DNA of 64,000 nt from Clostridia bacterium (GCA_017623435.1 JAGAPD010000033.1:26587-90586); one strand, 5' to 3'; shown: positions 11,528-37,552, counted from the first letter of the stretch. Numbers and translations are program-made. The notes: a model not told the origin generated them from the letters alone.

Positions 11528-11543
11528 TTTTCCCTCCTAAATC

Positions 11544-13526: not shown

Positions 13527-13540
13527 TTTCGTTTACCTCC

Positions 13541-16500
13541 TTATTCCGTTACCGTCAATTCGTAGTCGACGAAAGTCGCGTTTCCTCTCTCGTCACACGC
13601 AAAATAACGGAGTACGTAGGTGCCCGTTTCGTTCGCAACGAAGGAATTGCTATCCTTCATATTCACGGTGAAGATAAGACCGCAAGGACGAACTACGAAA
13701 CAGCAAAGCGTAAGCTCTTTTTCACTCGTGGAGTTGTCAACGGCAATGAAGTTTGCAAGTCCTACCTTCGTACCCTTCTTAACCGAAGTGGGATTGTTTT
13801 GCGTAAGCGTGATGACGGGCGCTTCGGGATCGACTACGTTCAAAAGAACGGGCGTACCTGATTTGTTTCCGTTATCGTCCTCGGTGCTGTAATTGATACG
13901 GTACTCGCCGTATTTATTAAGAACGAATTGATATTCTCTATCAGCAGGAACGTTGTTCAGCGCTATTCCGTCAACGCTGGTTATTACGTTACCTCCCTTG
14001 TCCGTTACGCGCACCGTAAGGGACACGTTGGGATCAAGCACGTCACACGCTACTGCGGAACGAACGGTAACGATTTCGTTGATCTTTCTCATACGCGTGC
14101 CGTCGCTTGGTGCGTAAATACGGGGATTTACACGGTCGAAAAGCACTCCGGAATTAAGCTCCTGCGTATTAAGTCTTCTTACCTTTACCGTTGCTTTTCC
14201 CGTTACGTCTTCAAACTCGATATACATACGCACCTTGTTAGATGCAAATCCGTCGAATTCGCTTCCGTCAGCCCAAGTATTAACGGTAAGATAGTTAGTA
14301 CCGTCAATAGTAATTTTTTTCGTAAGAATATCGTAGCCCAAGTTAAACTCGCCGTTGTTGTAATTTACCGCGATTTCGTACGGACCTACGCCGTTAATAA
14401 GCGTGTTCGTTGCGCCCGAATTATTCTTGAAAAGTCCCACGACTAATTTCTTATCCGCGTTTTCGCCGTCTTCAAGAACGACGTTTAATTTTCCAAGCGA
14501 GTTGCCTGCGTTTACAGTAAAGAAGTTGAGTGCAAAACCAAAAGCGCTAAGCGGATTAATAAACTCAACCGTACCGTTTTGGTTGGAAATAAGCTCTACG
14601 TCCGTTTCGGTCGCGCTTACGGTAACGTCCTCGCTATAGAAATACTTGCTGGTGTCCAGTATTGCTCGACCGCTTTCAGCAATCTTTTTAACGTTAATAA
14701 CCTTTACGGTGTACGACTTTTCGGTCGTGCCGTTAGCGTTAGAAGAAACGTACTTGATCGTCATATCTTTAGTAGCGCCCGCTTCGTTCACTTTAAACGT
14801 AACCTTGCGGTCCGCGCCAAGCGTTCTTTCGCCGTCGTCGTCCGTTACTTCAATAGAAACGTTCTGCTCCAATTTTCCGTTGTAGAAGTCGTACGCTTTA
14901 AGCTCGGGAATGACGTACTCGGTATCGGCGATAAAATATTTAGGAATTGACGCTCCCGTTTCAAACACGGGCTTTTTGGAAAGCGTTACTACGTGCTCGT
15001 ACGAATAAGTCTTTTTCGTACCTGCGTAGTCGGTCGCAACGAATTCTACCGTATAACTACCGTTCGAAAGGGGCTGGTAAGTTCCGTTAGTGATTTCAAC
15101 GGCTTTACCGCTTGCGTCGGTTACGAAGGGGGTTACGGTCACGAAACCACTACCGCCCGTCGTAGTTGCGTCAGGGAGAGTGATAATTTCGCCCACGTTA
15201 GAGGCTACTACTCTGTTTTCCGTGTCAACGTTGATGGAAATGTCTACGCCCGTTTCGTCACAGCTAACGACGTGTACCACTTCGCCTACGTTGCCCGAAT
15301 AGTCGGTTGCGCTGTAAACGACGTAATAATTACCGGGAGCGTTGGGGGTAAACTTTCCGTCAACTACGCTTACGGTGCTTTGTGCAGGCGAGCCGTAGTT
15401 CTGATAAACCTTCACTTTTGCTTCATTCTCGCCAGAATAGGGATCGACTGCGGTTGCGCTGAACACGGGATAAGGCTGACCTACTACTGCACGAGGAAGA
15501 TCGTTTTCGTCGTAGCCAAGCGTATCTATCGAAACGTAAGGCGCGCTACTGTCAACGAGCTTCGTTTCGGTGAGGTCTATTCCGCCAATATCCGTGATTA
15601 CGAAGTTAAGATGCGATTTCTTTAAGCCTTTGGTGGTAATTGAAAGGAAAACCTCGCCCGTGGTAAAACCGTCCCAAAGCTCGGAAAAGTGCGCGGGATT
15701 GTCAAGGTCGATAATTTCTCTGTCGCCCGTGCTAGAGCCCTGCGTCATAACCTTCTTGCTGTCGTGATCGAGGAAAAGCTGGAGTTGACCGTACGCGTTT
15801 TTCGCGGTGAGGAATTGCTCGCTCGTTTCGCCCGTGCCGTCACAGCCAAAGAAAGAGAAGTTTTGACCAAAGCCGTAAATATTGTTTTGGTGAAGTCTGT
15901 TCCACGCCTTTTCGTAGCCCGTGGTGGGTTGGAAAGCTGCGCCTGCCTGAATGTAAGCAACGTTGTGGCCGTACTTTCTACCGTCCTGCGTGCACGTTAC
16001 TTTAATTCTAACGTAGTTGCTATCGTCGTAGATATCGGTAAGCTTTATCGTGAACTCTTGAGCGTCCATTTCTTGCACCGTTTCGGGCGTCATATACATC
16101 GAAATGAAGGGGGACGTACCGTTCAGTTTCTCCAAATCAATTACTTGGTTGAACTTAAATTCACCAGTCGCGTTAATCGCTACCATAATGCCGTTCGTGT
16201 TGGGCGTGAGGGGGTGCGCTCCGTAGGACGCTCTGTTGGCTTTGCCCACTACTTCGTACAAATTGTTGTACACGTAGAAGTTAGCAGTTTCGGAAAGATA
16301 CTCTCCGCCCTCCGTCATCAAGAAGTACTCGACGGCGTATTTGCCCATTACCGTGGGCGTGAACTTGTTTACCGAATAGGAAGTGCCGTCGGGGCTATAA
16401 ACGACTTTGGTCGCTTTTACCTGACTGCCACCTACAGTAAAGTAAGCGTCGGGTACGTCGATTTCCGTTCCTACCGCGTACTCGCTTTCAAAGGATGCTA

Positions 16501-16624
16501 TCGCGTCGGTTACGGACGCGGACGCGTTACCTTTCGTAGCAAACAGCATAGTTAGTCCGCTGATTACCAGCACAAAAGCAAGCACGATTGGAACCAGAAT
16601 TCTAGTCAATTGCTTTGTCTTCAT
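13541..16624 (-). CDS. Cassette-2 gene A: N-terminally membrane-anchored multi-Ig-domain surface protein
   Basis: Likely start is ATG at 16624 (MKTKQLTRILVPIVLAFVLVISGLTMLF), preceded by AGGAGGA; the 27-codon extension in the track has no RBS. It is collinear with 3656..6733 along the whole length. Confidence 0.85.
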   Translation of the reverse strand: MKTKQLTRILVPIVLAFVLVISGLTMLFATKGNASASVTDAIASFESEYAVGTEIDVPDAYFTVGGSQVKATKVVYSPDGTSYSVNKFTPTVMGKYAVEYFLMTEGGEYLSETANFYVYNNLYEVVGKANRASYGAHPLTPNTNGIMVAINATGEFKFNQVIDLEKLNGTSPFISMYMTPETVQEMDAQEFTIKLTDIYDDSNYVRIKVTCTQDGRKYGHNVAYIQAGAAFQPTTGYEKAWNRLHQNNIYGFGQNFSFFGCDGTGETSEQFLTAKNAYGQLQLFLDHDSKKVMTQGSSTGDREIIDLDNPAHFSELWDGFTTGEVFLSITTKGLKKSHLNFVITDIGGIDLTETKLVDSSAPYVSIDTLGYDENDLPRAVVGQPYPVFSATAVDPYSGENEAKVKVYQNYGSPAQSTVSVVDGKFTPNAPGNYYVVYSATDYSGNVGEVVHVVSCDETGVDISINVDTENRVVASNVGEIITLPDATTTGGSGFVTVTPFVTDASGKAVEITNGTYQPLSNGSYTVEFVATDYAGTKKTYSYEHVVTLSKKPVFETGASIPKYFIADTEYVIPELKAYDFYNGKLEQNVSIEVTDDDGERTLGADRKVTFKVNEAGATKDMTIKYVSSNANGTTEKSYTVKVINVKKIAESGRAILDTSKYFYSEDVTVSATETDVELISNQNGTVEFINPLSAFGFALNFFTVNAGNSLGKLNVVLEDGENADKKLVVGLFKNNSGATNTLINGVGPYEIAVNYNNGEFNLGYDILTKKITIDGTNYLTVNTWADGSEFDGFASNKVRMYIEFEDVTGKATVKVRRLNTQELNSGVLFDRVNPRIYAPSDGTRMRKINEIVTVRSAVACDVLDPNVSLTVRVTDKGGNVITSVDGIALNNVPADREYQFVLNKYGEYRINYSTEDDNGNKSGTPVLLNVVDPEAPVITLTQNNPTSVKKGTKVGLANFIAVDNSTSEKELTLCCFVVRPCGLIFTVNMKDSNSFVANETGTYVLRYFACDERGNATFVDYELTVTE

Positions 16625-16696
16625 ATAATCCTCCTGTTTATTTGTTACACACCGAGCGATTTTTACGCTAAAACGCTCGACAATATATACACTCTT

Positions 16697-16725
16697 ATTA
16701 TACAAGATTTAGTACGAGTTGTCAA
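16697..16725 (-). promoter_or_regulatory. Sigma-70-type promoter of cassette 2 (TTGACA-N17-TATAAT)
   Basis: Minus strand reads TTGACA (16725..16720), a 17-nt spacer, then TATAAT (16702..16697), about 70 nt upstream of the gene A start. Confidence 0.7.
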
Positions 16726-17186: not shown

Positions 17187-20100
17187 CTATTGAGCGTTCT
17201 TAACGCTTTTTGCAATGGGAAGTCCGTCAGCATCCGTCGTCCAGAAGTTAGTATCCCACGTAGCAAACTCTGCTTTCCAGTCAGTAGCCGCCTTCATAGT
17301 GTCTCTGTCTGCGTACGAACCGCCAATGAAATCGTTAGCATTCGTAGTAGAAAGTGAACGGAATCCAGCAGCATTACCTACAACGTAAACGCCTTGAATG
17401 CTTTGATATCCATTGTGATACGAACCAACAGCAACACCGTTATTATCAGTCATATTACCAGTAAATACGGTATCAATGAAAGAATCGATAAACTTCGTCG
17501 TACCAAACGAATCAGCAGCACAGAAGAAACCAGTCTTGTCATTATTAGTGTTACCATTTTGCTGTTCAACAATTTTAGCGTAAACGTTTTGAAGCGTACC
17601 AGCACCTTTAGCAGAAATGAAACCACTGTTTCCTTTAAGTCTTGCATCAATGAAAGCAATATTTTTAATAGTACCAGGGGTAGCCATCTTTCCAACGAAA
17701 CCACCAGCTGCGCCTACAATCGTAAGACCTTTAATATAGTGTCCACGACCGTCAATCGTTCCAACGAAACCAGAAACTTGATCGCTCCAAGCAGCCGAAC
17801 CACCGTTAGCCGTTAAAGTGCTGTAATTGATGAACGTCGTCCAGTTCTTGTTATAATCAATATTTGCGCCAAGCAAGAAGTATCCACCCCATTTAGCACC
17901 AGTTTCAGCCGCTTTAGAAAGCGTACCAAGCTGATCCAAATCACTTGCGTTGTAGAATACCTTGGTTGCAACGGTAACGGGAGCATCTACGTAAATAGAT
18001 TTCATAATCTTATCGCCCGATTTTACGTCGTAACGGAAGGAAACAACGTTTTCGCCAAGCGCAAGATCACTTGCAAGAACGGTAACTTTATTGCCGTCAG
18101 CAGTATAAGTTACGGTTGCACCCTTGCTCGTTACAGAAACAAGCGTTCCTTCCACTTCAGGAAGAGTGAAAGAAGCAGACGTTTCTTCCTTGCTCAAGTC
18201 AACGATTACTTCGTCAAGCTTAATAACGTTAGAAGACTTAAATCTTGCTCTGTCACCACTCATATTCCAATAAGTGTTAAATCCAACAAAGCTAATGGAA
18301 TCAATCGTTTCGTTGTATGCTCTCTTTTTTACACCAGCGTTCAACCAGTTTGCTTGATAGTCGGTAATGGTAGGTACTTTAATAGCGTTTCCTTCAGCGT
18401 CTTTTCCATCCACAAACTTATGGAAGCGCTGACCTACGTTGTTATTAGTAAATACGTACGAGTTAGTAACAGCAGGATATGCGCCAGAGCTGTGGTTAAT
18501 GAAGGAGGAAATCTGAACGTTACCCGTGCGAATTGCGTCGTTATCGTAAAGAATAACGTTTTTAATTTTAGCAGTAGCACCACTTTGAGTAGCGATAACG
18601 CCAGACTCTCCGCCCGTTGTCGTTCTACTTGCTACGTTAAAGAGCACGTTATCAAGCGTTCCCCAAAGCGAAAGACCGATTACGGCAGCATAATTTTCAG
18701 AAAGGTTAACATTATCAAACGCTACGTTCTTAATTACGCCGTTTTTCCAAAGATAACCAAACAAGCCACCCGTCTTATACACACCACCGCTGATGGTATA
18801 GCCACGGCCGTCAAACGTTCCGTTAAAACCAGCCTCGGAATATGCAGCAGCATTAGTCGCAGTTTTCGTCTCGTGCCAAACACGCGTCAATTTGTCCTTC
18901 GTATCAATATTGTTAACTTCACTTGTACCAAGATCAATATTGTTACCAAGAACGAAGTATCCATCATATTGATCTTCAGTAGCGGTTTGACCCCACAACG
19001 TCCAAGTATAAGAAGTTTTATTAGGTGCATAAGACTTAATCGCAAGAAGCTCTTCAGCGGTATAAATTACCTTGTCTGCCTTGACAATACATACGTTAAC
19101 GAACGTCGTCGCAACGATTTTTTCGTTTGAAACGTTATCAAAACGAAGTACTACGTTATTGTCACCCATTGCAAGGTTTTCAGCAGACATAGTGTATTCG
19201 TTACCACTTGCGGTGTAAACGGCATTAGCACCGTTGTTGGTTGCGGAAACGAGCGTTCCCTCTACCGCAGGAACGGTAAACGTTGCGCTGGTTTCGGACT
19301 TAGAAAGGTCAACGAGCACGTCGTTAAGCGTTATATTCTTATAAGAACTAAATCTTGCCCTGTAGTCGGTCATATCCCAGTAAGCATTAAAAGCAGATAC
19401 GTTAACGTTTGCCTCAACAAGAGACTCGCAAAGAGGAATAGCCTTTACGGGAACAACAGTAGAATATTTTGATGCCATTGCATTAAAGTTAGTAAATACG
19501 TACACGTTAGTATGCGCACCATAACCTGCCGCACTTGCATTATCGTTAGAGTGATTTACGTACGAACTACCATCAGATACTTGCGTAGTCGAATTATCAT
19601 AAACGATAACGTTTTTCGCAACAAAAGAAGGAGCAATCTGTCTAATTACAGTACCATTTTCACTATTAGGAATATTACTTTGCTTGATATCAACTAAAAC
19701 GTTTTCAATAGTACCATACGCAGAGTTAGCAAAAACACTGGCTCCAATTTGAGATCCAACGGTTGCATCAACGATTGCTACGTTCTTAATAACAGATTGC
19801 TTGTAAAGGAATCCAAATAATCCGCCTTGTCCGTAAGCACCACCAACGATGGTATAGCCACGGCCGTCAAACGTTCCGTTAAAACCAACTTCTTTTTCAT
19901 ACCAGTTTCTCGAGGGGTTATTTCCAGCAGTCTTTATTCCTCTTATAGTACTATCACCAAGGTCAATATTGTTACCAAGTACGAAATATCCCGTCCAGAA
20001 ATCTTCTTTCATTGCGTCGCCCCAAACCGTAAACTCAACGTCTGCAGTAATAATCGTACCGTAAGATTTCATTGCAAGAAGATCTTCTGCAGTGTAAATT

Positions 20101-23100
20101 ACTTTGGTAATAAGGAACATTTCTGCGGTAACGGTGATATTTTCAACTACCGATCCGCCAACCGATTTTTCAGCAATTACGGTAAGCGTCTGGTTACCGT
20201 ACAAGGACTTAATGCCCTCTTTCGTGATTACAAGGTTTCCACCGTTATATTCCCAAGTGGGAACGGCAGTCGATCCGATCTTAACGGAAGTGGGTTCAAG
20301 AGTATCATAGTAGTTACCAAGATCCACCGTGAAGGTTGCGTTGCCGTCGTTAAGGTCAAATTCACCAAGGTTACCAAGTTCACCTACAACCATATTAACA
20401 ACGGTAAGCTCAATAGTACGGGTAGTTCCGTCAATTACCGTTGCGGTAACGGTAACCTTCGTACCAGCTTCTACGTTATTAGATGCAGTTACTACGCCGT
20501 TAGTTACGGTAACCTCAGCGTTATCCGATTCCCAAGCGGTAATAGTACCAGCAATATTGGGCGTAACGGTAACGGACTTACCCTTACCTACGACGTTTTG
20601 CGATACACTAATAGTAACGGAAGGTCCGATAAATTTTGCAATAACGTCCTTGTGCATAGTTGCCCAAGTTGCAGTTGCACCTTCGCCGTTAAGCCAGGTT
20701 ACGTATTCAGCAATAGTTGAGAAAGTTTTAACGTTTTCCGTGTCGTTCAATTGAGGATTATCCTGGAAATTAGAAAGTGCCTTTGCTGTATTTACTACGG
20801 GAATCTTTACCTCGCCACCAAACTGAATACCAATAAGGTTAGAGTAAGTTGCACCAATAAGATTACCAGCAATCATACCAGCAAAATTGGATACAGAGTT
20901 ATTATTGATTACAGCAGCAACACAGTTTCTAATAACGGCACCAGCTCTAGTGTTCGCGCAAATTAAACCGTTACACATATTCGCGTTGTTTGCATTAGCA
21001 AGCGTACCATATACCGCTACGTTTTCAATAGTACCATATAAGCACATTACGATAGCACTTGCGTTAGTAGTAACGTTTGCGTTATAAATGATAGTGTTTT
21101 TAAATACACCACTAGGCATAATAACACGGAAGAAACCATTATTACCGCTAGTCACGTTGTAGTTAGAAATGGTGTAGCCACGTCCGTCGAACGTGCCTTT
21201 CCATCCACCTACCCAGCCACTACCCCAATATCCCATAACGGGTACGAGAGTTTCATTTTGAAGGTCGATGTCAGCACCAAGAACGATATAACCAGTATAA
21301 CCCGTTTCACTATCGCCACCTACGTAATGTGTTGCAGCAATGAAATTAAGGAATTCTGCCTTGGTCGTAATAATTTTAGATGCAAGAGTTACGTTAGTGT
21401 TAAGCGTAATACTTTCAATAATTACGCTACCAACGTAAGTTTCAAAAGTAACAGAAATCTTGCCTTCGCCGATAAGCGACTTAATCTTATCTTTAGTGAT
21501 TACGACTTTACCGCCTTCCACTTTCCATGCGTCAGCAGCGAGCGAAGTGCTGTTAAACTTAACGTCAGCAACTTCTTTTTCTGCATATTCTCCAAGAGCG
21601 ATTTCAACGGTTGCACTGCCACCGTTAAGGTCTACGTCACCAAGAGCGGCAATATCTACGGAAGATACTTTACTTGCAACGAGCTCCATTGAGCGCGTAG
21701 TTCCGTCAACACCCGTTACGACAACCGTGAAGGTCGTACCAGCCACAACGGTGTTTGCTACGCTTATAACGCCTGCGTTAGAAACGCTTACGCCTTCAAC
21801 CGCGGGAGAGATTGCATAACCAACTACCCAAGTGGGCTGTGCGCAAGTTACGTTGAGCGTTCCACCTACGTTAACGACTTTATCGTTAGTGGGTTGAATA
21901 TTGATACCTACGAACTTGGAGATTGCGTTCTTGTGGAACGTGTTCCAAGTAGCAGTTGCGCCGTCGCTAGCGAGCCAAGCCGCATAAGCCTCAAAGCCCT
22001 TAAACGATTTTAAGGTGTCGGAGTCAAAGTTGCCTTGATTAGCAATGGTTTTTTGGCTTTCGCCAACAGCTTTCATGTTGTTTTCACCGAGATTGATAGA
22101 AATACCGTTGGTTACAGTAGTTTTGCTCCAACCTGCAACCGCACCACCGTACTGCGTATCAGCCGCAGCAGTTTGGGTAACTACAGCCAAAACGTTGTTC
22201 ATCGTACCGTTGTTTTTGGATATGATAAGCGAGCCTGGCGCCCAGTTTGCGCCACCAGTAACCGAGCCGTAAACTGCTACGTTTTCAACGGTACCTTCGC
22301 TATCAGTAGAAACTACTCCACCATGACCAGAGTTAGTTACGTTGAAAAGGTTAAGGTTCTTAACTACACCAGTTTTTGCGATACGCGAGAATAATCCGTG
22401 ATTACTACTAGTATCTCCGTTGCAGTTCGCAATAGTAAAGTTAGAAACAGTGTGTCCACGTCCATCAAACGTACCGTAGAATCGATGCGTCCATTGTGCG
22501 TAGTCTTTATTTGCGGTTATGTTTTTATACCAAGTAACCCACTTGCCAACACCTTTTTGAGTAGCACCCTTAAGATCAATATCGGCCCCAAGAACTACGT
22601 AGCCGTGCAATTCATAAATTTTTACACCGTCTACCCAAGCGTATTCATCCTTAATGCTTGCTTTCTCAATATCAGTAATATCTTTTACGACAAATTGATT
22701 AACAAGATCTGCAAATTCTTCTGCGGTCATAATTACCTTAGTAATAATAACGACTTTTACGGTATAGATATGGGTATCGGTCCAAAGGTCGATTTCGTGT
22801 TCGCCATAGCCAAGAGAAAGAAGAACTTCTTTAGCAAGCGTTACGTTACTTCCTTCGATTGCGGTATATGCGGTAATGTTGTTACCATCAGCATCGTAAA
22901 TTCTCTCGATAGTGCCGTCAATGTCCTCGTGCGTAAGAACGTATGTAGCGTTTCCGTTGCCGAGGTTTACGTCGATGGGCGTTTCGGTGAGGTCAACGAG
23001 CTCGTAGTTGAGCGAAGTGGTTACCACTACCGCGTTGGTAAGAGTTGCCGTGAAGGAGTAAATGCCTTCGTTTGCGGTAAGCTCTACGCCGTTTGCGGTT

Positions 23101-26100
23101 ACTTTGTCAATCTTGTAATCAGCGTTAGCCGCTACCGTGAAGGTTACGGTGTCGCCGTAGCGGTAGCCGTCAGCGCCGTAAGTTACTACGGACTGATTTG
23201 CCGTGGTTTCAACGGTTACTTCCACGGGCGCGAACTGTGCGCTTACGGTTACGTTAGCCGTAGTTGCCGTGTAAGTGTACTTGCCGTCAACTACGGACGC
23301 GGTTACGTCTACTCCGTCAACGGTGAGTGTTTTGAGCGCGTAGCCCTCGTTAGCCGTTACGGTGATAACGCCCGTCTCGCCTACCTTTGCGTAGGAGTCA
23401 ACGGTAATTTCACCGCCCTCTGTCTCCTCTACGCTAACGCTAGCGTAGAGTGCAGGGGTACAAATAATTTCGGAAATGTAGATTGCGTTGAATGCTTTAC
23501 CCTGATCAATCATAAGAGCATTGCCACCAACAGCGAACTGATGATAAAGCTGTGCAATATGAGATACAGGCATTACCACGTCAACCCATTGATTTACGGG
23601 AGCAGCAGCGCCACCGTTCCAGAAGGTAACTCTTTGAGCACCACCGCTGTTGACGTATACCAAATCCTGCGTATATAAAGGCATATCTATTGCGCCATCA
23701 ATATACATTCTAACAACGACGTTCTCATATTGCATAAGTTCGCTGAACGTTTTACCGGGTTGTACAAAAATGTTAACCCAAGTATCAGTGCTTACGATCT
23801 TAGCAACGTCTTTACCGTCAAACGTCGTAAGCGTTACGGTACCGCTATTAACAGTAATGCTGGAAAGTTTAGCGTACTTATCGCCAAGCGTCAAGTCGCG
23901 CGTATCGTTAGTAAGTCTAATATCAGTAATGTAAGCGGTAGTCGCTACACCATTTCCGTTATCAAATACTTTAATAAGTTGCAAACCATTAACGAGTGCA
24001 TCATACCATTCCTTTAAGGTCTTATATTCTGCACTGTTAGGATAAGCGTCCATATTGTTAAACCACATCATCGGGATACAAACGTTAGTCCACTCACCTG
24101 CGTTTGCGGTAACAATAGTCTTGTTGTTGGTCATAATTCTACGAGTACCTTCGCCAGTAACGTAATACATAAATTCTACGTAGTCCGCCGTCTTGAAGGT
24201 GTCGTAAGTTGCCATAACTTTCGTAAATACGTTGATTACGCCGTATTCGTCCGCAGTAGAAGTACCAGCGATTTTTGCATATTCGGTGTAACCAGCAGGA
24301 AGTGCGGGAAGTGCACCGTTAGCTGCGTCGATATCTGCTTGATCGATATATTCAGTAGTACCGTTATTAACGTAAATGTTGGAAGCGATTGCAGTTTGTT
24401 CGTTTACGTCAAAGAGTTCGTCCGAATCACAAGCCTTAATTTCGTGAATGAGAACTTTTTGAATCGTGTTAGCACTTATATTCGTGAACCAGAACCAACT
24501 ATATTCACCAGAAACAAGTTGATCGTAACAAGCAATCATATTACTTGCTTTTACCAATACGGTGATCCATTTGTTCGTGGGAACGTGTAAGTTTTCAGTA
24601 TTATTAAAGAAATAGGGATTTACTGTAGTATCTGCACCTACGAATTTAACCGTAACAGCAACCATAGCGCAGTTTTCATAAGCACTCTTTGCTTGACGAG
24701 GTGCAAAGTACAAATTGGGCCAGTTGTTACCGTCAGAACCACCTACTTGGCTGATATCAAACGATACGGAGCCGTGCGTTGCACCAGCAGGAGCGTCGCT
24801 AACGTAAGATTTACCAGTTACGTGGTTCATCGTCACGTCGTCAAGAGACGCGATATCGCTGAAGATATAAATTTCGTCTTTTGCTACGGAAGCGCGTTCA
24901 ATCGTGTAGGACTTCGCGTAATTGTAAGTCTTTCCGTTGTAAACGACTACGTAGTTTACGGTATAAGTACCACCGCCAAGACCGGAAATATTGATCGTTC
25001 CGTCGTCTTCAATGGTAAGTGCTTGACCGTGAGCAACTGCCGTCTTGGTGATAGTAGCCTGATCGGTTACGTCTTCTTCGTCAAGGGTAATCGTTACGTC
25101 GCCTGCGGTAAGAACGCCGTTAGCGTAAGTAAGCTCGCCTACTTCAATGTTTGCGGATGCTTCTACGCTGAATTCCTTGATTGCAACGCCGTAATATCCG
25201 TCAGCGGTAAACTCTACGGTGTAAGTACCAAACACGCCGGTGATAGCGCTGGGATCAGCAACTACGTTACCAGCAGGATCTTTTACCGTCATCGTTACGT
25301 TCGTAAGAGCGTCGGGGTTGTTATAAGATACGGAGAATACTTCGCCTTCGCGGAGCGTTCCTTCCGTCTTAACGGTAAGATTTGCCTTGCTAGCAACCTT
25401 AATTGCGGAGATATCAGCGATATAATACGTACCTTTCTCGGAGCTAACGGAATTAAACCAAAGTCTATATTTGCCAATATCAATATCGTTAAGGTTGTTG
25501 CTCCAACCGATCTTGAATACTTCGATATCAAAGATATAATCAATCCACTGGTCGTACGCTACGGTACCGTCGTATCCGATAGGTTTAGTGTCTTTTTCAG
25601 AGTTATTACCAAGTACCATATACTTGAGTTTTCCACCCGTGCTACTGATATACATTCTGAATACGACGTAATCGTAATCTTCGTATGCACTCATTTCCTG
25701 AACGGATGCAAAACCAAGCCAAGGCCACGTTTCGCTACTATGCTCGAACTTCGCAACGCCACTCTCGCCCTCAAATTCAGAAAGCCAAGTAATGTTGTTT
25801 ACGGTATTCGTGCCCATCATTACCTTTTCAAGGTCACAGGGAGCAACAAAGGAGTTAACTTCGCCTGCCTCTGCCGTAGGACGAGCGATAGAAACGGTTT
25901 TCTCGTACGCGTAATCCTTATCATTATAAGATACGGTGTAAATTACCTTATAGGTTGCGCCGTAATAAGGAGCGGTAAACTTGCCGTCCGTTACGGTGAT
26001 ATCCTGTTCGCCGTACTTAGCAGTTACGGTTACGGTTGCACCCTCAAGTGCGCCACCCGTAGCAGGATCGGTAAGCGTGATTGCGCCCGTCGTTACGGTA

Positions 26101-29100
26101 AGACCACTTACGGTAGCGTCAGCAATAGCTGCGTTGAATACGGGATATACGGTGAACGTTTCGCTAACCGAAACATATCCGTCAGCCGAGAACGTTACGG
26201 TATATTCACCAGCGGTTGCGGTAAACGCGTTGTTAGTAAGTTCAACTGCCTGACCGTTAGCGTTAGTTACGGAAAGCGTAATGCCTTCGATATTGTTAGT
26301 ATTGGTGTAGTTAAGAGTTACTTCGCCTTCACGGAGAACTTCGTCCGTAAGTGCAACGCCCGTCATATCGTCTGCAAGTTTAACGCTTTCAACGTAGATA
26401 GCGTTGAATGCTTTATTTCGAACGATAAACAAAGCGTTAATGTTAAGGTAATATTCGGGATAAAGGGTAATAACTCTTTCGGTAGGAATAAGTACTTCTA
26501 CCCACTTATTAGGCTGATAAGTACCGTAAGAAACGAAGTCGTTACCACTTGCACCCGAAAGCGTGGATTGCGAATAGAATTCAATTGCATTCGATCCGTC
26601 AATATAAAGTTTTACTACTACGTACTTATATTCAGCAAGTTCAGCAGGAGTCTTTACGGGTTTTGCATAGATATTGCACCATACGCCGCCAGTAATTTTT
26701 ACAACGTTCTTGCCGTCGTAAGTAGTCGTTTCTTGAGTTCCATTAGAATAAACGTTCGTGGAATCTACTGCTTTTACGTAGCTATAACCAACGGTTGCGT
26801 CCTGTTCGAACTTGCCGTAACGTACGGACGTCAAATAGTAAGATTCGTCTTCGGTTGCGTTACCCCATCTGATACGGAAGAATTCGCCACCGTTTACCAT
26901 ATCGTTATACCAGTCTTCTGCCTTGGTAAAAGGTTTAGCGGTGGACGCCGTGTGAGCAAACAATCCGATAGGAAGACGAACGGTATTCCAACCTGCATTA
27001 AGCGTTATAAGGTTCTTATTATAAAGGTAAAGCTGTCTGCTGGGTTGCGTTAAATAAATCTGGAATTCAACGTAATCAGCGTTTACGAACTCTTCTACTC
27101 CGCTCATGGGTTTAGCGTAGAACATAAAGAAGCTGTATCCGTCGTTTGCTTTGCCAGTTACTTTAACGTATGCGTTCTCTCCAGCAGGAAGTGCGGGAAG
27201 AGTGTCGTCTGCTAAGATTGCATCAGCGTCAACGTAGGTTACGGTGCCGTTGCCACCCTTCAACGAACGAACTGCTCTTTCGTCCTTAATATCAAAGAAT
27301 TCGTTGCTTTCGATATAATAGGTTCTCGTCGCAACTGCGATTTCAAACGCAGTATCGTTTGCCGTGAAGGTGTATTCGTCTACTTCTTCGCCGTTTACCG
27401 TTACGCTCGTTACTTCGTAGCCTTCGTTAGCGGTTACTTCGAAGTTAACGGTATCGCCCCACTTGTAAGCGTCCTTTTCAAGCGTTACGGTTGCGTTAGT
27501 TGCGGTATAAGTCACGGTTACGTCTTTCTTAACTGCGTATATGGAAATAACGATTTCGTCACTTCTATATTCTATTCTATAATAGCCGTCAACAAACTTA
27601 TCAATTACGCTTTCGCCATTTACCTTAATATCAGCAACTTCATAGCCATCAGGAACAGGAACACCGTTAATAGGCATATCAGTGTATCCAAACCACTTGC
27701 CTACTACTTCGCTTTGCTTATTTGCAAACTCGCCGTCGAGGTACATTTCAATAGTACCAGTTACGTCCTTAAGCTCAGTCGTTACTACGATTTCAAAATC
27801 TTTGCCGTTTGCCGTGAAGGTGTATTCATCTACTTCTTTGCCGTTTACGGTTACGCCCGTTACGTTGTAGCCCTCGTCAGCGGCTACCGTGAAGGAAACG
27901 GTGTCACCCCACTTGTAAATTTCTTTATCAAGATCTACGGTTGCGTTAAGAGCGTCAACGGTTAAGATTACGTCTTTCTTTTCAGTCGTTACTACGATTT
28001 CAAACGCAGTACCGTTTGCCGTGAAGGTATATTCGGTAACTTCTTCTCCGTTTACGGTTACGCCCGTTACGTTGTAGCCTTCGTCAGCGGTTACTTCAAA
28101 GTTAACGGTGTCGCCCCACTTGTAAGCCTCTTTGTCAAGCGTTACGGTTGCGTTAGCAGCGTTAACGGTTACGGTCGCGGTTTTGCTTACGTACTCACCT
28201 ACGATTTCGTAAACGTCAGCCTCAACCACAAAGCTATAATCCATATCTTTGTCAAGTTTGTCTATAATGTTTTCGCCATTGATAGTCAACTTAACAAGAT
28301 CGTATCCTTCCATACTGAATCTGAAGTTTTGCGAAGTAAACCATTCAGCCATATCAGGTACGGTTTGACTTTCAGTTACTCCGTCAAGCGTAACGGACAT
28401 AACGAACGTTGCTTTCTTAAGCTCGGTCGCAACTACTACGCTTGCAGTTTCACCAGCCATCGTGAAGGTGTAAGTGCCTTCGGTTGCGGTTACCACTACT
28501 CCGTCAGCCTTAACCTCGGTTACTTTGTAGCCCGTCGCTGCCGTTACGGTAAAGGAAACGGTGTCGCCGTACTTGTACGCGTCTTTATCAAAATTAACGG
28601 TCGCGTTAGGAGCGGTTACGCTTACGCTTGCGTTCTTCTTTTCAGCAATTACTACGATTTCGTACTTCTCGCCAGCCGTAGTAAAGGTGTATTTGCCGTC
28701 GGTGAATACGAAAGCCTCGCCGTTTACGGTTGCGGTCTTGATTTCGTAGCCTTCTTCTAATTCTACGCTAACGGTTACTTCGTCGCCCCACTTGTAAGCC
28801 TCTTCGTCAAGCGTTACGGTTGCGTTAGTAGCGTTAACGGTTACTATCGTTTCTTTGCGTTCAATTTCAGCGTAAACGGTATGAGTATCTGCGCTTACCT
28901 GGAATACGAAGAATCCGTCTACGATTTTGTCAAACGCGTCTTCGCCGTCAAAAGTAAGTTTTACCCACTTATAGTCTTCGGGAATATCCATAGCCCAAGA
29001 TTTATATTCAAACCATTTAGCAAGCTCTAATTCCTCGCTGGAAAGACCGTCCATAACGGATATCTTCTTGATTACGGCGTCTCTAACGGCGGTAGTTACT

Positions 29101-30587
29101 TCTACCGTGTAGTTAAGGGGCGAAGTATAATCGGATGCCGTGAAGGTGTAGGTGTTGCCGTCAACGGTAAGATCTCTACCCGGTACGGTTACGCCCGTTA
29201 CGTTGTAGCCCGTCGCTGCCGTTACGGTGAAGGTAACTTCGTCGCCGTACTTGTAAGCGTCCTTATCAAACTTAACGGTTGCGTTATCCGCTTTAACGTT
29301 TACGGTGATGGGCGCGTAAGTTACGTAAACTCTTACGTCGTAAGTATCGTTTTCAGCCGTGAACTTAACGAGACCGTCTTCGCCGATCATTCCGGTTGCG
29401 TCCTTGCCGTTGATAGTGAATTCAACGAGGTTAAAGAATACGGGGAACTTATCAAAATCCATTTCGGTAAGCTCTACTTCGTCAAACCACTTATATTCTT
29501 TAACGAGGGGTTCTTGCATTGCTTCGCCGTCAAGGTACATATTCATCGTTACGGTTACGTCTTTGATTTCGTAAGTAGCCGTTACGTCGTATACGGTGGA
29601 GGTAAGCGTGGTGGTGTACGAGCTGGTCGTTACTACTTCGCCGTTTACGGTAGCAGAAACGAACTTGTAGCCTCTGCCAGCCACGAAGTTGAAGGTCACC
29701 TTTTCATTATATATAAGGTCGCCGTCAATCTCGATTGCGCCGTTCTCAACCGTTTTGTTTACCTTAACGTCAACGCCCTTGATAAGAACTTGTACGTCAA
29801 AATTGGTGGAAACGTAATCAGTGGTCTTTACCGTGAACGTGCCGTCGGTTACGATAGCTTTGCCGTTTACGGTAGCGCCGTACACGCGGTAATTCTCTAC
29901 TGCGCTTGCGCTGAATACGATTTCATCACCGTAGCGATATTCTTTTTCTTCAAAACTTACATTGCCAAGGTTTGCGTCGCAAGTAGCAGATACTTTAAGT
30001 ACCTGACCGCGGAAGCTTGCCTCGATTACGTAGTTTTCTTCCATTGCCTCGAACGAGAATACTCCGTCAACGGGCGTAAATACTTCGCCGTTTACTTTTA
30101 CGGAGCCTTCGATAAGTTCGTAGCAAGCGTCGGGCGTAATGGTTACGGTAGCAACGTCGCCAAGCTCGTATCCGCCCTTTACGGTGATACTGCCGTTGCC
30201 CGTTACTTGCTTGTCGTAGCTTACGCTACCTTCGGGAACTTCGCCCGTTACCGTTACTAAACAGGTGTCGGATGCCGAGCCTGCCATTGCGGTAATGGTT
30301 ACTACGCCGGGGTATTTACCCTCTACGCGTCCCGTCGCAGATACGGTCGCGATTCTGTCGTCGCTGGAAAACCATACCGTTGCGTCGGTGTTGTTTTGTT
30401 TCTGTGCAACAAGCTGAATGGCTTTGCCTACTTCAACCTCTGCCGTCTCTCTCGTAATGTTTACGTGCGACGCGCCGGGCGGTGTAGGCTCGGTGCTTTC
30501 GTCGAACAAACGGTCACAGCCAACGAGCGTGAACGCCGTCACGAATGCAAGCAAAACAGACAAGATTGTCAATTTGACTTTTTTCAT
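17187..30587 (-). CDS. Giant 4,466-aa mosaic surface lipoprotein (BIG2, 13 InlB-B-repeat-like modules, CBM-like/Ig block, 5 GLUG-type beta-helix modules)
   Basis: Single uninterrupted ORF. The likely start is ATG at 30587 (MKKVKLTILSVLLAFVTAFTLVGC, lipobox), preceded by GAGGAGGA; the 29 upstream codons in the track lack an RBS. Domain calls come from repeat motifs read in the translation. Confidence 0.9.
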   Translation of the reverse strand: MKKVKLTILSVLLAFVTAFTLVGCDRLFDESTEPTPPGASHVNITRETAEVEVGKAIQLVAQKQNNTDATVWFSSDDRIATVSATGRVEGKYPGVVTITAMAGSASDTCLVTVTGEVPEGSVSYDKQVTGNGSITVKGGYELGDVATVTITPDACYELIEGSVKVNGEVFTPVDGVFSFEAMEENYVIEASFRGQVLKVSATCDANLGNVSFEEKEYRYGDEIVFSASAVENYRVYGATVNGKAIVTDGTFTVKTTDYVSTNFDVQVLIKGVDVKVNKTVENGAIEIDGDLIYNEKVTFNFVAGRGYKFVSATVNGEVVTTSSYTTTLTSTVYDVTATYEIKDVTVTMNMYLDGEAMQEPLVKEYKWFDEVELTEMDFDKFPVFFNLVEFTINGKDATGMIGEDGLVKFTAENDTYDVRVYVTYAPITVNVKADNATVKFDKDAYKYGDEVTFTVTAATGYNVTGVTVPGRDLTVDGNTYTFTASDYTSPLNYTVEVTTAVRDAVIKKISVMDGLSSEELELAKWFEYKSWAMDIPEDYKWVKLTFDGEDAFDKIVDGFFVFQVSADTHTVYAEIERKETIVTVNATNATVTLDEEAYKWGDEVTVSVELEEGYEIKTATVNGEAFVFTDGKYTFTTAGEKYEIVVIAEKKNASVSVTAPNATVNFDKDAYKYGDTVSFTVTAATGYKVTEVKADGVVVTATEGTYTFTMAGETASVVVATELKKATFVMSVTLDGVTESQTVPDMAEWFTSQNFRFSMEGYDLVKLTINGENIIDKLDKDMDYSFVVEADVYEIVGEYVSKTATVTVNAANATVTLDKEAYKWGDTVNFEVTADEGYNVTGVTVNGEEVTEYTFTANGTAFEIVVTTEKKDVILTVDALNATVDLDKEIYKWGDTVSFTVAADEGYNVTGVTVNGKEVDEYTFTANGKDFEIVVTTELKDVTGTIEMYLDGEFANKQSEVVGKWFGYTDMPINGVPVPDGYEVADIKVNGESVIDKFVDGYYRIEYRSDEIVISIYAVKKDVTVTYTATNATVTLEKDAYKWGDTVNFEVTANEGYEVTSVTVNGEEVDEYTFTANDTAFEIAVATRTYYIESNEFFDIKDERAVRSLKGGNGTVTYVDADAILADDTLPALPAGENAYVKVTGKANDGYSFFMFYAKPMSGVEEFVNADYVEFQIYLTQPSRQLYLYNKNLITLNAGWNTVRLPIGLFAHTASTAKPFTKAEDWYNDMVNGGEFFRIRWGNATEDESYYLTSVRYGKFEQDATVGYSYVKAVDSTNVYSNGTQETTTYDGKNVVKITGGVWCNIYAKPVKTPAELAEYKYVVVKLYIDGSNAIEFYSQSTLSGASGNDFVSYGTYQPNKWVEVLIPTERVITLYPEYYLNINALFIVRNKAFNAIYVESVKLADDMTGVALTDEVLREGEVTLNYTNTNNIEGITLSVTNANGQAVELTNNAFTATAGEYTVTFSADGYVSVSETFTVYPVFNAAIADATVSGLTVTTGAITLTDPATGGALEGATVTVTAKYGEQDITVTDGKFTAPYYGATYKVIYTVSYNDKDYAYEKTVSIARPTAEAGEVNSFVAPCDLEKVMMGTNTVNNITWLSEFEGESGVAKFEHSSETWPWLGFASVQEMSAYEDYDYVVFRMYISSTGGKLKYMVLGNNSEKDTKPIGYDGTVAYDQWIDYIFDIEVFKIGWSNNLNDIDIGKYRLWFNSVSSEKGTYYIADISAIKVASKANLTVKTEGTLREGEVFSVSYNNPDALTNVTMTVKDPAGNVVADPSAITGVFGTYTVEFTADGYYGVAIKEFSVEASANIEVGELTYANGVLTAGDVTITLDEEDVTDQATITKTAVAHGQALTIEDDGTINISGLGGGTYTVNYVVVYNGKTYNYAKSYTIERASVAKDEIYIFSDIASLDDVTMNHVTGKSYVSDAPAGATHGSVSFDISQVGGSDGNNWPNLYFAPRQAKSAYENCAMVAVTVKFVGADTTVNPYFFNNTENLHVPTNKWITVLVKASNMIACYDQLVSGEYSWFWFTNISANTIQKVLIHEIKACDSDELFDVNEQTAIASNIYVNNGTTEYIDQADIDAANGALPALPAGYTEYAKIAGTSTADEYGVINVFTKVMATYDTFKTADYVEFMYYVTGEGTRRIMTNNKTIVTANAGEWTNVCIPMMWFNNMDAYPNSAEYKTLKEWYDALVNGLQLIKVFDNGNGVATTAYITDIRLTNDTRDLTLGDKYAKLSSITVNSGTVTLTTFDGKDVAKIVSTDTWVNIFVQPGKTFSELMQYENVVVRMYIDGAIDMPLYTQDLVYVNSGGAQRVTFWNGGAAAPVNQWVDVVMPVSHIAQLYHQFAVGGNALMIDQGKAFNAIYISEIICTPALYASVSVEETEGGEITVDSYAKVGETGVITVTANEGYALKTLTVDGVDVTASVVDGKYTYTATTANVTVSAQFAPVEVTVETTANQSVVTYGADGYRYGDTVTFTVAANADYKIDKVTANGVELTANEGIYSFTATLTNAVVVTTSLNYELVDLTETPIDVNLGNGNATYVLTHEDIDGTIERIYDADGNNITAYTAIEGSNVTLAKEVLLSLGYGEHEIDLWTDTHIYTVKVVIITKVIMTAEEFADLVNQFVVKDITDIEKASIKDEYAWVDGVKIYELHGYVVLGADIDLKGATQKGVGKWVTWYKNITANKDYAQWTHRFYGTFDGRGHTVSNFTIANCNGDTSSNHGLFSRIAKTGVVKNLNLFNVTNSGHGGVVSTDSEGTVENVAVYGSVTGGANWAPGSLIISKNNGTMNNVLAVVTQTAAADTQYGGAVAGWSKTTVTNGISINLGENNMKAVGESQKTIANQGNFDSDTLKSFKGFEAYAAWLASDGATATWNTFHKNAISKFVGINIQPTNDKVVNVGGTLNVTCAQPTWVVGYAISPAVEGVSVSNAGVISVANTVVAGTTFTVVVTGVDGTTRSMELVASKVSSVDIAALGDVDLNGGSATVEIALGEYAEKEVADVKFNSTSLAADAWKVEGGKVVITKDKIKSLIGEGKISVTFETYVGSVIIESITLNTNVTLASKIITTKAEFLNFIAATHYVGGDSETGYTGYIVLGADIDLQNETLVPVMGYWGSGWVGGWKGTFDGRGYTISNYNVTSGNNGFFRVIMPSGVFKNTIIYNANVTTNASAIVMCLYGTIENVAVYGTLANANNANMCNGLICANTRAGAVIRNCVAAVINNNSVSNFAGMIAGNLIGATYSNLIGIQFGGEVKIPVVNTAKALSNFQDNPQLNDTENVKTFSTIAEYVTWLNGEGATATWATMHKDVIAKFIGPSVTISVSQNVVGKGKSVTVTPNIAGTITAWESDNAEVTVTNGVVTASNNVEAGTKVTVTATVIDGTTRTIELTVVNMVVGELGNLGEFDLNDGNATFTVDLGNYYDTLEPTSVKIGSTAVPTWEYNGGNLVITKEGIKSLYGNQTLTVIAEKSVGGSVVENITVTAEMFLITKVIYTAEDLLAMKSYGTIITADVEFTVWGDAMKEDFWTGYFVLGNNIDLGDSTIRGIKTAGNNPSRNWYEKEVGFNGTFDGRGYTIVGGAYGQGGLFGFLYKQSVIKNVAIVDATVGSQIGASVFANSAYGTIENVLVDIKQSNIPNSENGTVIRQIAPSFVAKNVIVYDNSTTQVSDGSSYVNHSNDNASAAGYGAHTNVYVFTNFNAMASKYSTVVPVKAIPLCESLVEANVNVSAFNAYWDMTDYRARFSSYKNITLNDVLVDLSKSETSATFTVPAVEGTLVSATNNGANAVYTASGNEYTMSAENLAMGDNNVVLRFDNVSNEKIVATTFVNVCIVKADKVIYTAEELLAIKSYAPNKTSYTWTLWGQTATEDQYDGYFVLGNNIDLGTSEVNNIDTKDKLTRVWHETKTATNAAAYSEAGFNGTFDGRGYTISGGVYKTGGLFGYLWKNGVIKNVAFDNVNLSENYAAVIGLSLWGTLDNVLFNVASRTTTGGESGVIATQSGATAKIKNVILYDNDAIRTGNVQISSFINHSSGAYPAVTNSYVFTNNNVGQRFHKFVDGKDAEGNAIKVPTITDYQANWLNAGVKKRAYNETIDSISFVGFNTYWNMSGDRARFKSSNVIKLDEVIVDLSKEETSASFTLPEVEGTLVSVTSKGATVTYTADGNKVTVLASDLALGENVVSFRYDVKSGDKIMKSIYVDAPVTVATKVFYNASDLDQLGTLSKAAETGAKWGGYFLLGANIDYNKNWTTFINYSTLTANGGSAAWSDQVSGFVGTIDGRGHYIKGLTIVGAAGGFVGKMATPGTIKNIAFIDARLKGNSGFISAKGAGTLQNVYAKIVEQQNGNTNNDKTGFFCAADSFGTTKFIDSFIDTVFTGNMTDNNGVAVGSYHNGYQSIQGVYVVGNAAGFRSLSTTNANDFIGGSYADRDTMKAATDWKAEFATWDTNFWTTDADGLPIAKSVKNAQ
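17190..23006 (-). repeat. C-terminal region of giant protein: five Ig-stalk + beta-helix (GLUG-like) modules, two with intervening BIG2 domains
   Basis: Hallmark motifs occur five times: HGYVVLGADIDLKG, TGYIVLGADIDLQN, TGYFVLGNNIDLGDS, DGYFVLGNNIDLGTS, GGYFLLGANIDYNKN. Each is followed by F.GT.DGRG[YH] and GLFG/GFVG....G.IKN. Boundaries come from my residue count and are approximate. Confidence 0.7.
23454..27320 (-). repeat. Central block of giant protein: nested duplication A-B-[Ig-Ig-C]-[Ig-Ig-C]-A'-B' of CBM-like beta-sandwich and Ig-like modules
   Basis: ORF-track residues ~1119-1436 are paralogous to ~2086-2407 (LPALPAG.., ADYVEF.IY, AGW/EWTNV, KAFNAIY.E). Residues ~1437-1764 are paralogous to ~1765-2085 (LREGEV..., YTVTF/EFTADGY...). 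Coordinates are derived by counting residues. Confidence 0.6.
27321..30227 (-). repeat. Array of 13 InlB-B-repeat-like (Listeria-Bacteroides-repeat-like) modules of 67-83 aa
   Basis: The recurring pattern is NATV.(L/F)DK.AYK(W/Y)GD.V.F.V.A..GY.VT.V.VNG.. ..YTFT. Four variant modules are interleaved (MYLDGE..KWF..). Three copies (27972..28181, 27765..27971, 27321..27521) are nearly identical at the protein level. Confidence 0.7.
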
Positions 30588-30664
30588 TTCATCCTCCTCA
30601 AGATGTAATTGTCCACAATATTTCCTCGTGCGTATGCACGCGAAAATATAATTCGTCACAAAAA

Positions 30665-30696
30665 AGTATAGCATACTACCCCCCCCCCATTGTCAA
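30665..30696 (-). promoter_or_regulatory. Candidate promoter of the giant gene with a homopolymer in the spacer
   Basis: Minus strand reads TTGACA (30696..30691), then AT-G10-TAG-TATGCT (15-nt spacer) or on to TATACT (30670..30665, 20-nt spacer). It sits about 80-105 nt upstream of the ATG at 30587. Confidence 0.55.
30679..30688 (-). repeat. Homopolymeric G10 tract (C10 on plus strand)
   Basis: Direct count: cc at 30679..30680 plus cccccccc at 30681..30688. This is the only homopolymer of this length I saw in the window. Confidence 0.95.
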
Positions 30697-37203: not shown

Positions 37204-37551
37204 TTATTTTATGAATCCAAGCGATATAAGTAAAGCCTTATCTATACTCTTCATAAGCTCCTCTCCAACTTCACCTACTCGCGACTTTAACCTGCGCTTA
37301 TCTATGGTGCGGACTTGTTCTAAAAGTGCGACTGAATCGCGCGCGAGTCCACATACTCCGCTTTTAATTTCCACGTGGGTGGGTAGTTTTGCCTTACAAA
37401 GCTGACTGGTAACCGCGCTAACGATTACGGTGGGAGAAAACTTATTACCGATATCGTTTTGCACGACTAAAACGGGGCGTACTCCACCCTGCTCGCTCCC
37501 AACGACGGGGCTTAAATCGGCATAATAAATTTCTCCGCGTTTTACTTCCAT
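37204..37551 (-). CDS. mazF: MazF/PemK (EndoA-like) endoribonuclease toxin
   Basis: 115 aa. [50 protein letters not shown] is a classic MazF signature. Confidence 0.9.
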
Positions 37552-37552
37552 T

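Follow-up and report, generated by a model that had tools for sequence, protein, structure and literature searches.

What might a gut bacterium do with a surface lipoprotein of 4,466 amino acids (aa)? This question is raised by a 64,000-nucleotide (nt) stretch of DNA from a Clostridia bacterium (GCA_017623435.1 JAGAPD010000033.1:26587-90586; the whole analysed stretch is referred to as the window), the minus strand of which encodes such a protein, here called the giant, at 17187-30587. The sequence of the giant is public as MBO5215671.1, annotated as 'Ig-like domain-containing protein' of a Clostridia metagenome-assembled genome (MAG) in the cluster table. Its scaffold measures 157,976 bp, and its gut metagenome sample belongs to project XIEF21-1, which we take to be a ruminant-gut MAG survey. 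By sequence comparison, the giant is an oversized and architecturally unusual member of a huge, uncharacterised family of beta-helix proteins. Concerning its function, we give an even chance to the view that it captures substrate multivalently, without catalysis of its own, in cooperation with surface glycosidases. Capture of glycans or glycoproteins appears the most likely role because the helix family travels with, and is sometimes fused to, enzymes with a DUF4838 domain.

The C-terminal part of the giant holds five predicted beta-helix modules of 260-290 aa (H1, aa 2616-2905; H2, 3069-3335; H3, 3493-3757; H4, 3837-4121; H5, 4206-4466), each preceded by an immunoglobulin (Ig)-like stalk of about 85 aa. 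The AlphaFold2 (AF2) model of H2 (pLDDT 74.7, pTM 0.79) is a beta-helix in which the stacked beta rungs end in a helical cap at the C-terminus. Its best Foldseek match is 3n6z (BACOVA_03286, a 'putative IgA1 protease'; E 3.8e-4, probability 1.0, TMq only 0.46), followed by the IgA1 protease of Streptococcus pneumoniae (7jgj, 7uvl and 6xja; probabilities 0.57-0.96). In this protease, an N-terminal-domain beta-helix of about 270 aa has no catalytic role; it binds the Fab of IgA1 and acts as a gate to the active site (PMC7695701). The modules of the giant have in common with the protease N-terminal domain and 3n6z what would be a small right-handed beta-helix of about 260-290 aa, the entry motif F-x-G-x-F-D-G-x-G-x-x-I and repeated G..I.N rungs. 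Unlike the IgA1 protease, the giant has no M26 protease domain and carries the module in five copies, every one of them following an Ig stalk; its family is encoded next to a DUF4838 glycosidase as genomic partner, not a metalloprotease.

How large this family is became apparent only upon exhaustive search with a profile of the window's eight helix modules, which yielded 25,937 clusters at E≤1e-3 and 872 at E≤1e-30; word-indexed homologue searches had returned a single match for H2 alone and six for the 8-module alignment. Many of the family proteins hold 2-20 helix modules, and they reach up to 7,338 aa. Pfam GLUG (PF07581) and Peptidase_M26_N (PF05342) match neither the whole giant at E≤0.01 nor H2 alone at E≤5. 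The module profile matches four relatives (P0079, P0099, P0147 and P0048) at E 1e-60 to 1e-95, and in all four the segments spanning the matched stretch carry PF07581 or PF05342; P0017, P0022 and P0023 likewise carry one or the other. Because close relatives have no Pfam coverage and distant ones carry GLUG or Peptidase_M26_N in the matched segments, the helix module represents, judged by these profile matches, a branch of the GLUG / IgA1-protease N-terminal-domain superfamily which Pfam does not cover. A literature search on GLUG together with beta-helix found nothing.

Across 416 modules, glycine turns, an Asn ladder and the N-terminal cap (GY..L..DID, F.G.FDG.G) are conserved and the C-terminal half is variable. 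For this reason, the pattern suits a scaffold with variable binding surfaces rather than an enzyme. A lipobox, sought with a loose pattern, is present in 82 of the 150 closest relatives and LPXTG in none of them; large relatives include P0050 (4,612 aa, with a non-canonical STGC) and P0061 (3,594 aa, with FFAC). Lipid anchoring thus appears to be common in the helix family.

A probable partner of these modules emerges from the genomic loci of seven helix relatives, six of which are informative, one contig being too short. A DUF4838 gene lies directly upstream of the helix gene in five of the six (L004, L005, L006, L007 and L010). In four of these five, the DUF4838 gene is itself preceded by a gene of the type called A in the cassettes next to the giant, described below: homologues are present in L004, L006 and L007, and the gene in L010 corresponds in size and position, not having been aligned. 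Genes for ABC sugar-type permeases lie further upstream in two of the five loci. The large relative P0050 sits in the C position of such an A-B-C cassette, an arrangement conserved in gut metagenomes other than that of the window. Moreover, in 10 of the top 150 relatives, helix modules and a DUF4838-like domain are joined in a single protein; one of the ten, of 2,233 aa, is also encoded in L007. Conserved adjacency and gene fusions together provide strong comparative evidence that helix modules work with DUF4838 glycosidases. DUF4838 is the catalytic domain of GH163, whose member BT1035 is a surface endo-enzyme on complex N-glycans, and of GH185, exemplified by the 6-sulfo-GlcNAcase Sp_0475 (PMC10570127). 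A family of about 26,000 clusters hereby gains a concrete, testable partner, and helix proteins are suggested as accessory proteins for GH163/GH185-type enzymes acting on N-glycans and sulfated glycans.

How could the giant serve in substrate capture? Lipidation of Cys24 would hold its N-terminus in the membrane of a monoderm cell, and the array of Big_2, B-repeat and Ig modules would act as a spacer, so that the distal modules emerge beyond the wall. Glycans would be the ligands of the jelly-roll modules. The beta-helix modules would either bind a glycoconjugate or glycoprotein, in the manner of the IgA1-protease helix on IgA1 Fab, or dock DUF4838 enzymes. Substrate would thus be kept beside the GH163/GH185-type lipoprotein enzymes encoded just downstream, and length changes of a tract of ten G residues (G10) in the giant's own promoter would switch its expression.

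Regarding the first of these steps, the ORF (open reading frame) extends over 17187-30674 on the minus strand and encodes 4,495 aa when counted from the first in-frame ATG. The ATG at 30587 is the better start, since a GAGGAGG Shine-Dalgarno sequence precedes it by 5 nt; the 29 in-frame codons ahead of it are not protein-like. From there the 4,466 codons run to 17187 with neither an internal stop codon nor a frameshift, which bears out the single uninterrupted 13.4-kb ORF described in an earlier note on this DNA. The N-terminus, MKKVKLTILSVLLAFVTAFTLVGC, is a textbook lipoprotein signal. Such a signal was defined by a start of positive charge, a hydrophobic core and the lipobox [LVI][ASTVI][GAS]C, the Cys of which falls near residue 15-35; in the giant these parts read MKKVK / LTILSVLLAFVTAFT / LVGC, with Cys24 and a mean hydropathy of 2.35. 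The signal peptide is the sole hydrophobic 19-mer of the whole protein. Neither an LPXTG motif nor a second hydrophobic segment was found in the giant, and Pfam reports no SLH or choline-binding domains for it. By its lipobox signal, the giant is predicted to be a lipid-anchored surface protein without a C-terminal wall anchor, as had been proposed on both counts. The further claim that such a size is unusual for a lipoprotein holds in general; it does not hold within the helix family, where the 4,612-aa relative has a lipobox-like signal.

From the N-terminus to the C-terminus, the giant is built as follows:

30516-30605, minus strand: GAGGAGG Shine-Dalgarno sequence, ATG at 30587 and signal peptide with the lipobox LVGC (Cys24).
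30252-30476, minus strand: Big_2 Ig-like domain, aa 38-112 (Pfam PF02368).
27327-30221, minus strand: 13 InlB-B-repeat-like (Flg_new_2) modules, aa 123-1087 (Pfam PF18998; 13 jackhmmer envelopes).
26382-27311, minus strand: block A, jelly-roll modules resembling carbohydrate-binding modules (CBMs), type 1 (aa 1093-1252) and type 2 (aa 1252-1402) (self-similarity, AF2, Foldseek).
25875-26381, minus strand: block B, part 1, two Ig-like modules, aa 1403-1571 (Pfam; paralogous to aa 1733-1899).
25392-25874, minus strand: block B, part 2, jelly-roll type 2, aa 1572-1732 (jackhmmer).
24891-25391, minus strand: block B', part 1, two Ig-like modules, aa 1733-1899.
24429-24890, minus strand: block B', part 2, jelly-roll type 2, aa 1900-2053 (jackhmmer).
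23463-24428, minus strand: block A', one jelly-roll module of each type, aa 2054-2375 (identity with block A 37%).
23013-23441, minus strand: two further B-repeats, aa 2383-2525 (Pfam, jackhmmer).
21660-22997, minus strand: unit 1, stalk aa 2531-2615, H1 aa 2616-2905, Ig-like segment aa 2906-2976 (hmmsearch).
20388-21659, minus strand: unit 2, stalk aa 2977-3068, H2 aa 3069-3335, Ig-like segment aa 3336-3400 (AF2, Foldseek).
19317-20387, minus strand: unit 3, stalk aa 3401-3492, H3 aa 3493-3757.
18225-19316, minus strand: unit 4, stalk aa 3758-3836, H4 aa 3837-4121.
17187-18224, minus strand: unit 5, stalk aa 4122-4205, H5 aa 4206-4466, stop codon.

Profile searches and self-comparison thereby agree with the order given earlier, namely Big_2, 13 B-repeats, a nested block, two B-repeats and five pairs of stalk and helix. 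It had also been said that BIG2 domains are interspersed among the helix units: two Ig-like segments of about 70 aa do follow H1 and H2, but their identity as Big_2 is weak, just one of them matching the Big_2 profile, and this marginally (independent E-value, iE, 0.022). With the whole giant as query, the only Pfam hits are Big_2 and Flg_new_2, and a scan with NCBIfam gave nothing meaningful. The Big_2 match (PF02368, aa 41-108) has an E-value of 6.7e-11 and 42.4 bits against a gathering cut-off of 22.8. Flg_new_2 (PF18998), a divergent InlB B-repeat, scores 65.5 bits against a cut-off of 23.6, its best stretch being aa 2383-2455. Neither the giant nor the A or B gene gave a match in sequence searches of the PDB.

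Jackhmmer delimits 15 B-repeats in total (iE 1e-12 to 1e-30). Each third repeat of the array is of a divergent subtype, which results in supra-repeats of about 220 aa, and this three-module pattern is mirrored in the DNA by repeat spacings of 450/207/453/219/459 nt at 70-85% identity. The giant resembles Listeria InlB B-repeat, Flg_new and Flg_new_2 proteins in having repeated spacer or binding units of about 70 aa on a Gram-positive surface. Unlike InlB, it has neither LRR (leucine-rich repeat) nor GW domains, it carries an N-terminal lipid anchor and not a GW or LPXTG anchor, and its repeats show the three-module periodicity.

The block between the two sets of B-repeats (aa 1090-2375) is a nested duplication of the order A-B-B'-A', as seen by self-comparison. 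A (aa 1090-1400) and A' (aa 2054-2375) are 37% identical and consist of two modules of about 155 aa each, one of type 1 and one of type 2; B (aa 1400-1640) pairs with B' (aa 1726-1975), and each of these comprises two Ig-like modules and one type-2 module. Altogether the block holds six jelly-roll and four Ig modules. For the Ig-like pair at aa 1403-1571, Pfam gives Phage_tube_C at 27.7 bits (above the cut-off of 24.1) and Big_3 at its cut-off of 21.2, with weaker matches to CarboxypepD_reg and Transthyretin below cut-off. The AF2 model of aa 1090-1402, computed from an alignment of 4 sequences, consists of two beta-sandwich domains (pLDDT 73.6). In Foldseek, block A matches the CBM4 of CelK (3p6b; probability 1.0, TMt 0.41), CBM-like domains of Cry1Ac/Vip3, Xyn30D and N-terminal domains of GH2 enzymes, and it also matches cupins and arrestins. 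'CBM-like' is a fair description of the modelled fold; a glycan-binding role is unproven. No Pfam model, those for CBMs included, matches any of the six jelly-roll modules at E≤5. A word-indexed search found no homologue of the block at E≤1e-3, and no relative could be confirmed in pattern scans, which covered JGI metagenomes and, in two rounds, GTDB genomes. Among the 150 closest helix-family proteins, none has the jelly-roll/Ig block. We call these jelly-rolls 'orphan' in the sense that word-indexed and pattern searches did not find them elsewhere, which is not proof of their absence; six such modules without detectable homologues are a pointer to new binding modules.

Where do the enzymes come in? 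Downstream of the giant (1-16725, minus strand), the window contains two tandem copies of a cassette of three genes. A encodes a membrane-anchored protein of about 1,030-1,040 aa of no known family, B a DUF4838 lipoprotein of about 655 aa, and C a lipoprotein of about 1,500 aa with Big_2 domains and three stalk/helix modules:

13541-16725, minus strand: A gene G13541, about 1,030 aa, N-terminal membrane anchor, no Pfam family.
11544-13526, minus strand: B gene G11544, DUF4838 lipoprotein with lipobox AVAC (Pfam PF16126, E 2.1e-36).
6929-11527, minus strand: C gene G6929, 1,532 aa, lipobox LVAC, three Big_2-like domains.
1-6769, minus strand: second cassette with A' (G3656, 3656-6769), B' (G1680, 1680-3641, DUF4838) and C' (from about 1663).

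The stalk/beta-helix modules of G6929 span aa 384-672, 837-1095 and 1256-1530. C' runs off the window; its length in locus L001 is 1,511 aa. After uvrA comes the giant and then the A gene G13541, so the giant is not directly downstream of a B gene. In the ENA assembly, a scaffold break (L002/L001) lies inside the B gene G11544, the paralogue of which, G1680, is 67% identical. The window is continuous across G11544, and therefore its source joined a gap which the ENA assembly left open.

The giant shows extensive homology with only two neighbours, G6929 and C'. A profile of its five helix modules finds those of G6929 by hmmsearch at E-values of 1e-32 to 1e-58, far beyond chance, and its Big_2 domain is homologous to the N-terminal Big_2 domains of both C proteins. 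With the A genes it has one Ig segment of about 55 aa in common, and with the DUF4838 B genes the signal peptide only; a BLAST match between aa 224-456 of the giant and aa 414-699 of G13541 (E 1.4e-06) was not confirmed. The bodies of the neighbouring DUF4838 and A proteins are absent from the giant, and a profile search of the neighbours revealed neither its jelly-rolls nor its B-repeats. The earlier note had described the giant as a mosaic of every module type of the neighbouring cassettes, which is not supported, extensive sharing being confined to the C genes. Its claim of paralogy between the helix and stalk modules of the giant and those of the C genes is upheld by hmmsearch and pairwise identities, and the two motifs which it quoted are present as written at about aa 3131 of the giant and about aa 1319 of G6929. 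In common with the C-gene family (G6929; P0024, 1,758 aa; P0061; P0050), the giant has a lipobox-type signal, an N-terminal Big_2 domain and stalk plus helix modules. Unlike these proteins, it adds 15 B-repeats and the orphan jelly-roll/Ig block, and it is not downstream of a DUF4838 gene.

The shared helix modules have been apart for a long time. Amino acid identity is 40% between H2 and C_c (the C-terminal module of G6929), 43% between H4 and C_b (module b of G6929), and 54% between H4 and C'1 (the first module of C'). Cross-gene pairs are about 56% identical in nucleotides, identical residues share a codon only about half the time (~50%), and synonymous sites are saturated. H3, H4 and C_b are 44-52% identical to modules from other metagenomes, as close as they are to each other. 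The module order is permuted, with the c-type before the b-type in the giant and b before c in G6929. The paralogy of the giant and the C genes is, by these comparisons, old (40-55% aa identity) and its modules are rearranged, but a recent exchange is argued against by this identity and by the saturated synonymous sites. Of the module exchange proposed earlier for this island, the rearrangement remains, supported by the permuted order and by a second-MAG orthologue (P0002) which departs from the giant after residue 939; recent exchange does not. A recent gene conversion between H2 and G6929 was considered for a patch of 25 codons (83% nucleotide identity, 13 of 16 identical residues with the same codon versus ~50%) and rejected, since the patch coincides with the best-conserved motif and is not significant once 23 windows are allowed for. 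A scheme of three module subtypes common to the giant and G6929 was rejected as well, only H2/C_c and H3-H4/C_b-C' being robust groupings. For H1, H5 and C_a, closer relatives exist beyond the window.

A bolder version of substrate capture would take all these genes together. The A membrane protein, the B DUF4838 lipoprotein glycosidase and the C helix lipoprotein might form an undescribed three-gene surface system of gut Clostridia, with the giant and C as capture or docking subunits and thus as the monoderm counterpart of Bacteroides surface glycan-binding proteins (SGBPs) plus enzyme; the giant would be an extra, phase-variable version in which jelly-rolls extend reach and specificity. We offer this as a tentative proposal, less likely than not to be right. 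The analogy to SusE/F-type SGBPs and the GH163 enzyme BT1035 is functional and inferred: on either side there would be lipid-anchored, multi-domain, non-catalytic beta-sandwich proteins encoded next to a surface glycosidase and sugar transporters, the enzyme superfamily (DUF4838) being shared. Unlike the Bacteroides systems, the one described here apparently belongs to a monoderm, with ABC permeases in place of SusC/D, has no sequence relationship to them, and its giant is ten-fold larger. Holding of glycans on the surface of Gram-positive gut and rumen bacteria is far less understood than the Sus-like systems of Bacteroides.

The expression of the giant is suggested to be variable by its upstream region:

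30679-30696, minus strand: TTGACA -35 hexamer (30696-30691), AT and G10 (30688-30679); candidate promoter with a slipped-strand switch.

The G10 tract lies about 92 nt ahead of the start codon and is the sole G/C homopolymer of at least 8 nt in the 64-kb window. Two -10-like hexamers, TATGCT and TATACT, follow TTGACA at 15- and 20-nt spacing, and a standard promoter scan found no promoter with 16-18-nt spacing for the giant on its strand. A gain of two G or a loss of three would put one or the other hexamer at the optimal spacing of 17 nt. The position of G10 within the promoter spacer suggests phase variation of giant expression, and the homopolymer is a candidate expression switch. Phase variation by promoter-spacer homopolymers occurs in surface proteins such as Neisseria porA (poly-G) and the vlp genes of Mycoplasma hyorhinis (poly-A). 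As in porA and vlp, the G10 tract lies between the -35 and -10-like hexamers, here of a surface lipoprotein gene. Unlike in these systems, no length variation of G10 was seen, the material being a single assembly and the independent Logan contig L003, which terminates within the tract. Poly-G is a known trouble spot for two-colour sequencers.

Further downstream, a perfect TTGACA-17-TATAAT is present at 16725-16697 (minus strand). This sigma-70 consensus extends over the TTG listed as the start of G13541; that gene therefore probably begins at an internal ATG (MKTKQLTRIL...), and the cassette probably has its own promoter. The giant appears to be a separate transcription unit.

Several points weigh against substrate capture in concert with the glycosidases. 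A terminator-like hairpin and the consensus promoter separate the giant from the first cassette, and the giant stands upstream of that cassette without itself being downstream of a DUF4838 gene. Among the family loci, P0033 (L009) has no separate DUF4838 neighbour, though one is fused at its C-terminus. The jelly-roll likeness is at the level of fold only, with TM-scores of at most 0.41 for a model from a 4-sequence alignment; no CBM or GLUG model of Pfam matches the modules of the giant; and both AF2 models (H2 and aa 1090-1402) are of moderate confidence.

The same separation of transcription units speaks for a general adhesin or aggregation fibre which holds on to host mucosa, feed particles or cells, uncoupled from the glycosidases, and whose position next to the cassettes reflects shared ancestry with the C modules only. 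Its own promoter region would fit such a role, long arrays of B-repeats and Ig-like modules are typical of Gram-positive adhesins, and surface antigens and adhesins of variable expression typically have a homopolymer tract in their promoter. However, DUF4838 adjacency across the family and the fusions argue that the helix module works with the enzyme, and we consider an uncoupled adhesin rather unlikely. If the giant were merely another large adhesin, the value of the present analysis would be better annotation only.

Could the helices themselves be the enzymes? Pectate lyases and polygalacturonases are folded as right-handed beta-helices, the genomic context is one of glycan degradation, and a weak Foldseek match to pectate lyase A (E 0.012, TMq 0.27) was obtained, so that the giant might be pictured as a five-headed surface enzyme with modules acting as polysaccharide lyases (PLs) or GH28-like depolymerases. 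We regard this as improbable. The best structural matches are to the non-catalytic IgA1-protease helix and 3n6z, no PL or glycoside hydrolase (GH) model of Pfam matches the giant, and a helix of about 270 aa is short, with few rungs. What is conserved are Gly, Asn, hydrophobic residues and the N-terminal cap, and not an acidic or basic set lining a groove.

A structural envelope protein, S-layer-like or a wall-spanning scaffold and not a ligand binder, would account for the great length and repetitiveness of the giant, and a cluster for wall-polymer biosynthesis is located nearby at 46573-52200. Such a role is quite improbable given that Pfam detects no SLH or other wall-binding domains, that the architecture differs between strains, which is unusual for an essential structural layer, and that the helix family is tied to glycosidases.

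The difference between strains is seen in P0002 (MBQ7224339.1), a 1,055-aa fragment from a second MAG which is 93% identical to residues 1-939 of the giant. Beyond residue 939, inside the B-repeat array, a stalk and the beginning of a helix module follow immediately, up to the contig edge at residue 1,055, so that B-repeats 12-13 and at least the initial portion of the jelly-roll block are missing from it. We read this as a probable strain-level gain or loss of modules; alternatively, the junction at about 27,770 of the window (residue ~939) is the one candidate chimera site. The source is a short-read metagenome assembly, the contig index gave no match when the giant was looked up exactly, and no independent full-length copy is on record. 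Yet the longest exact repeat within the gene is 40 nt and its top internal repeats are at most 85% identical over 200 nt, which makes collapse or a graph tangle unlikely at usual final k-mer sizes. Assembly collapse of the gene is unlikely. That the 13.4-kb ORF is in part a chimera joining at least two real genes through similar repeats is highly improbable also in view of its open frame, its coherent domain boundaries throughout and the similarly built relatives of about 3.6-4.6 thousand aa on long contigs.

Some further features of the window were recorded. An Rfam scan matched no family. Two ORFs on the minus strand, 53276-55432 (718 aa) and 44966-46576 (536 aa), have no Pfam family at E≤1e-5. 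Between them, at 46573-52200 (minus strand), genes encode glycosyltransferases, a CDP-glycerol glycerophosphotransferase, an initiating transferase (Bac_transf) and a DegT aminotransferase; this wall-polysaccharide or teichoic-acid-like locus is consistent with a monoderm envelope. At about 37204-37753 (minus strand), called from locus L002, a PemK-family toxin gene (115 aa) is found with an upstream partner of 66 aa. The toxin gene adjoins a DinB-type (IMS) polymerase gene and lies upstream of uvrB.

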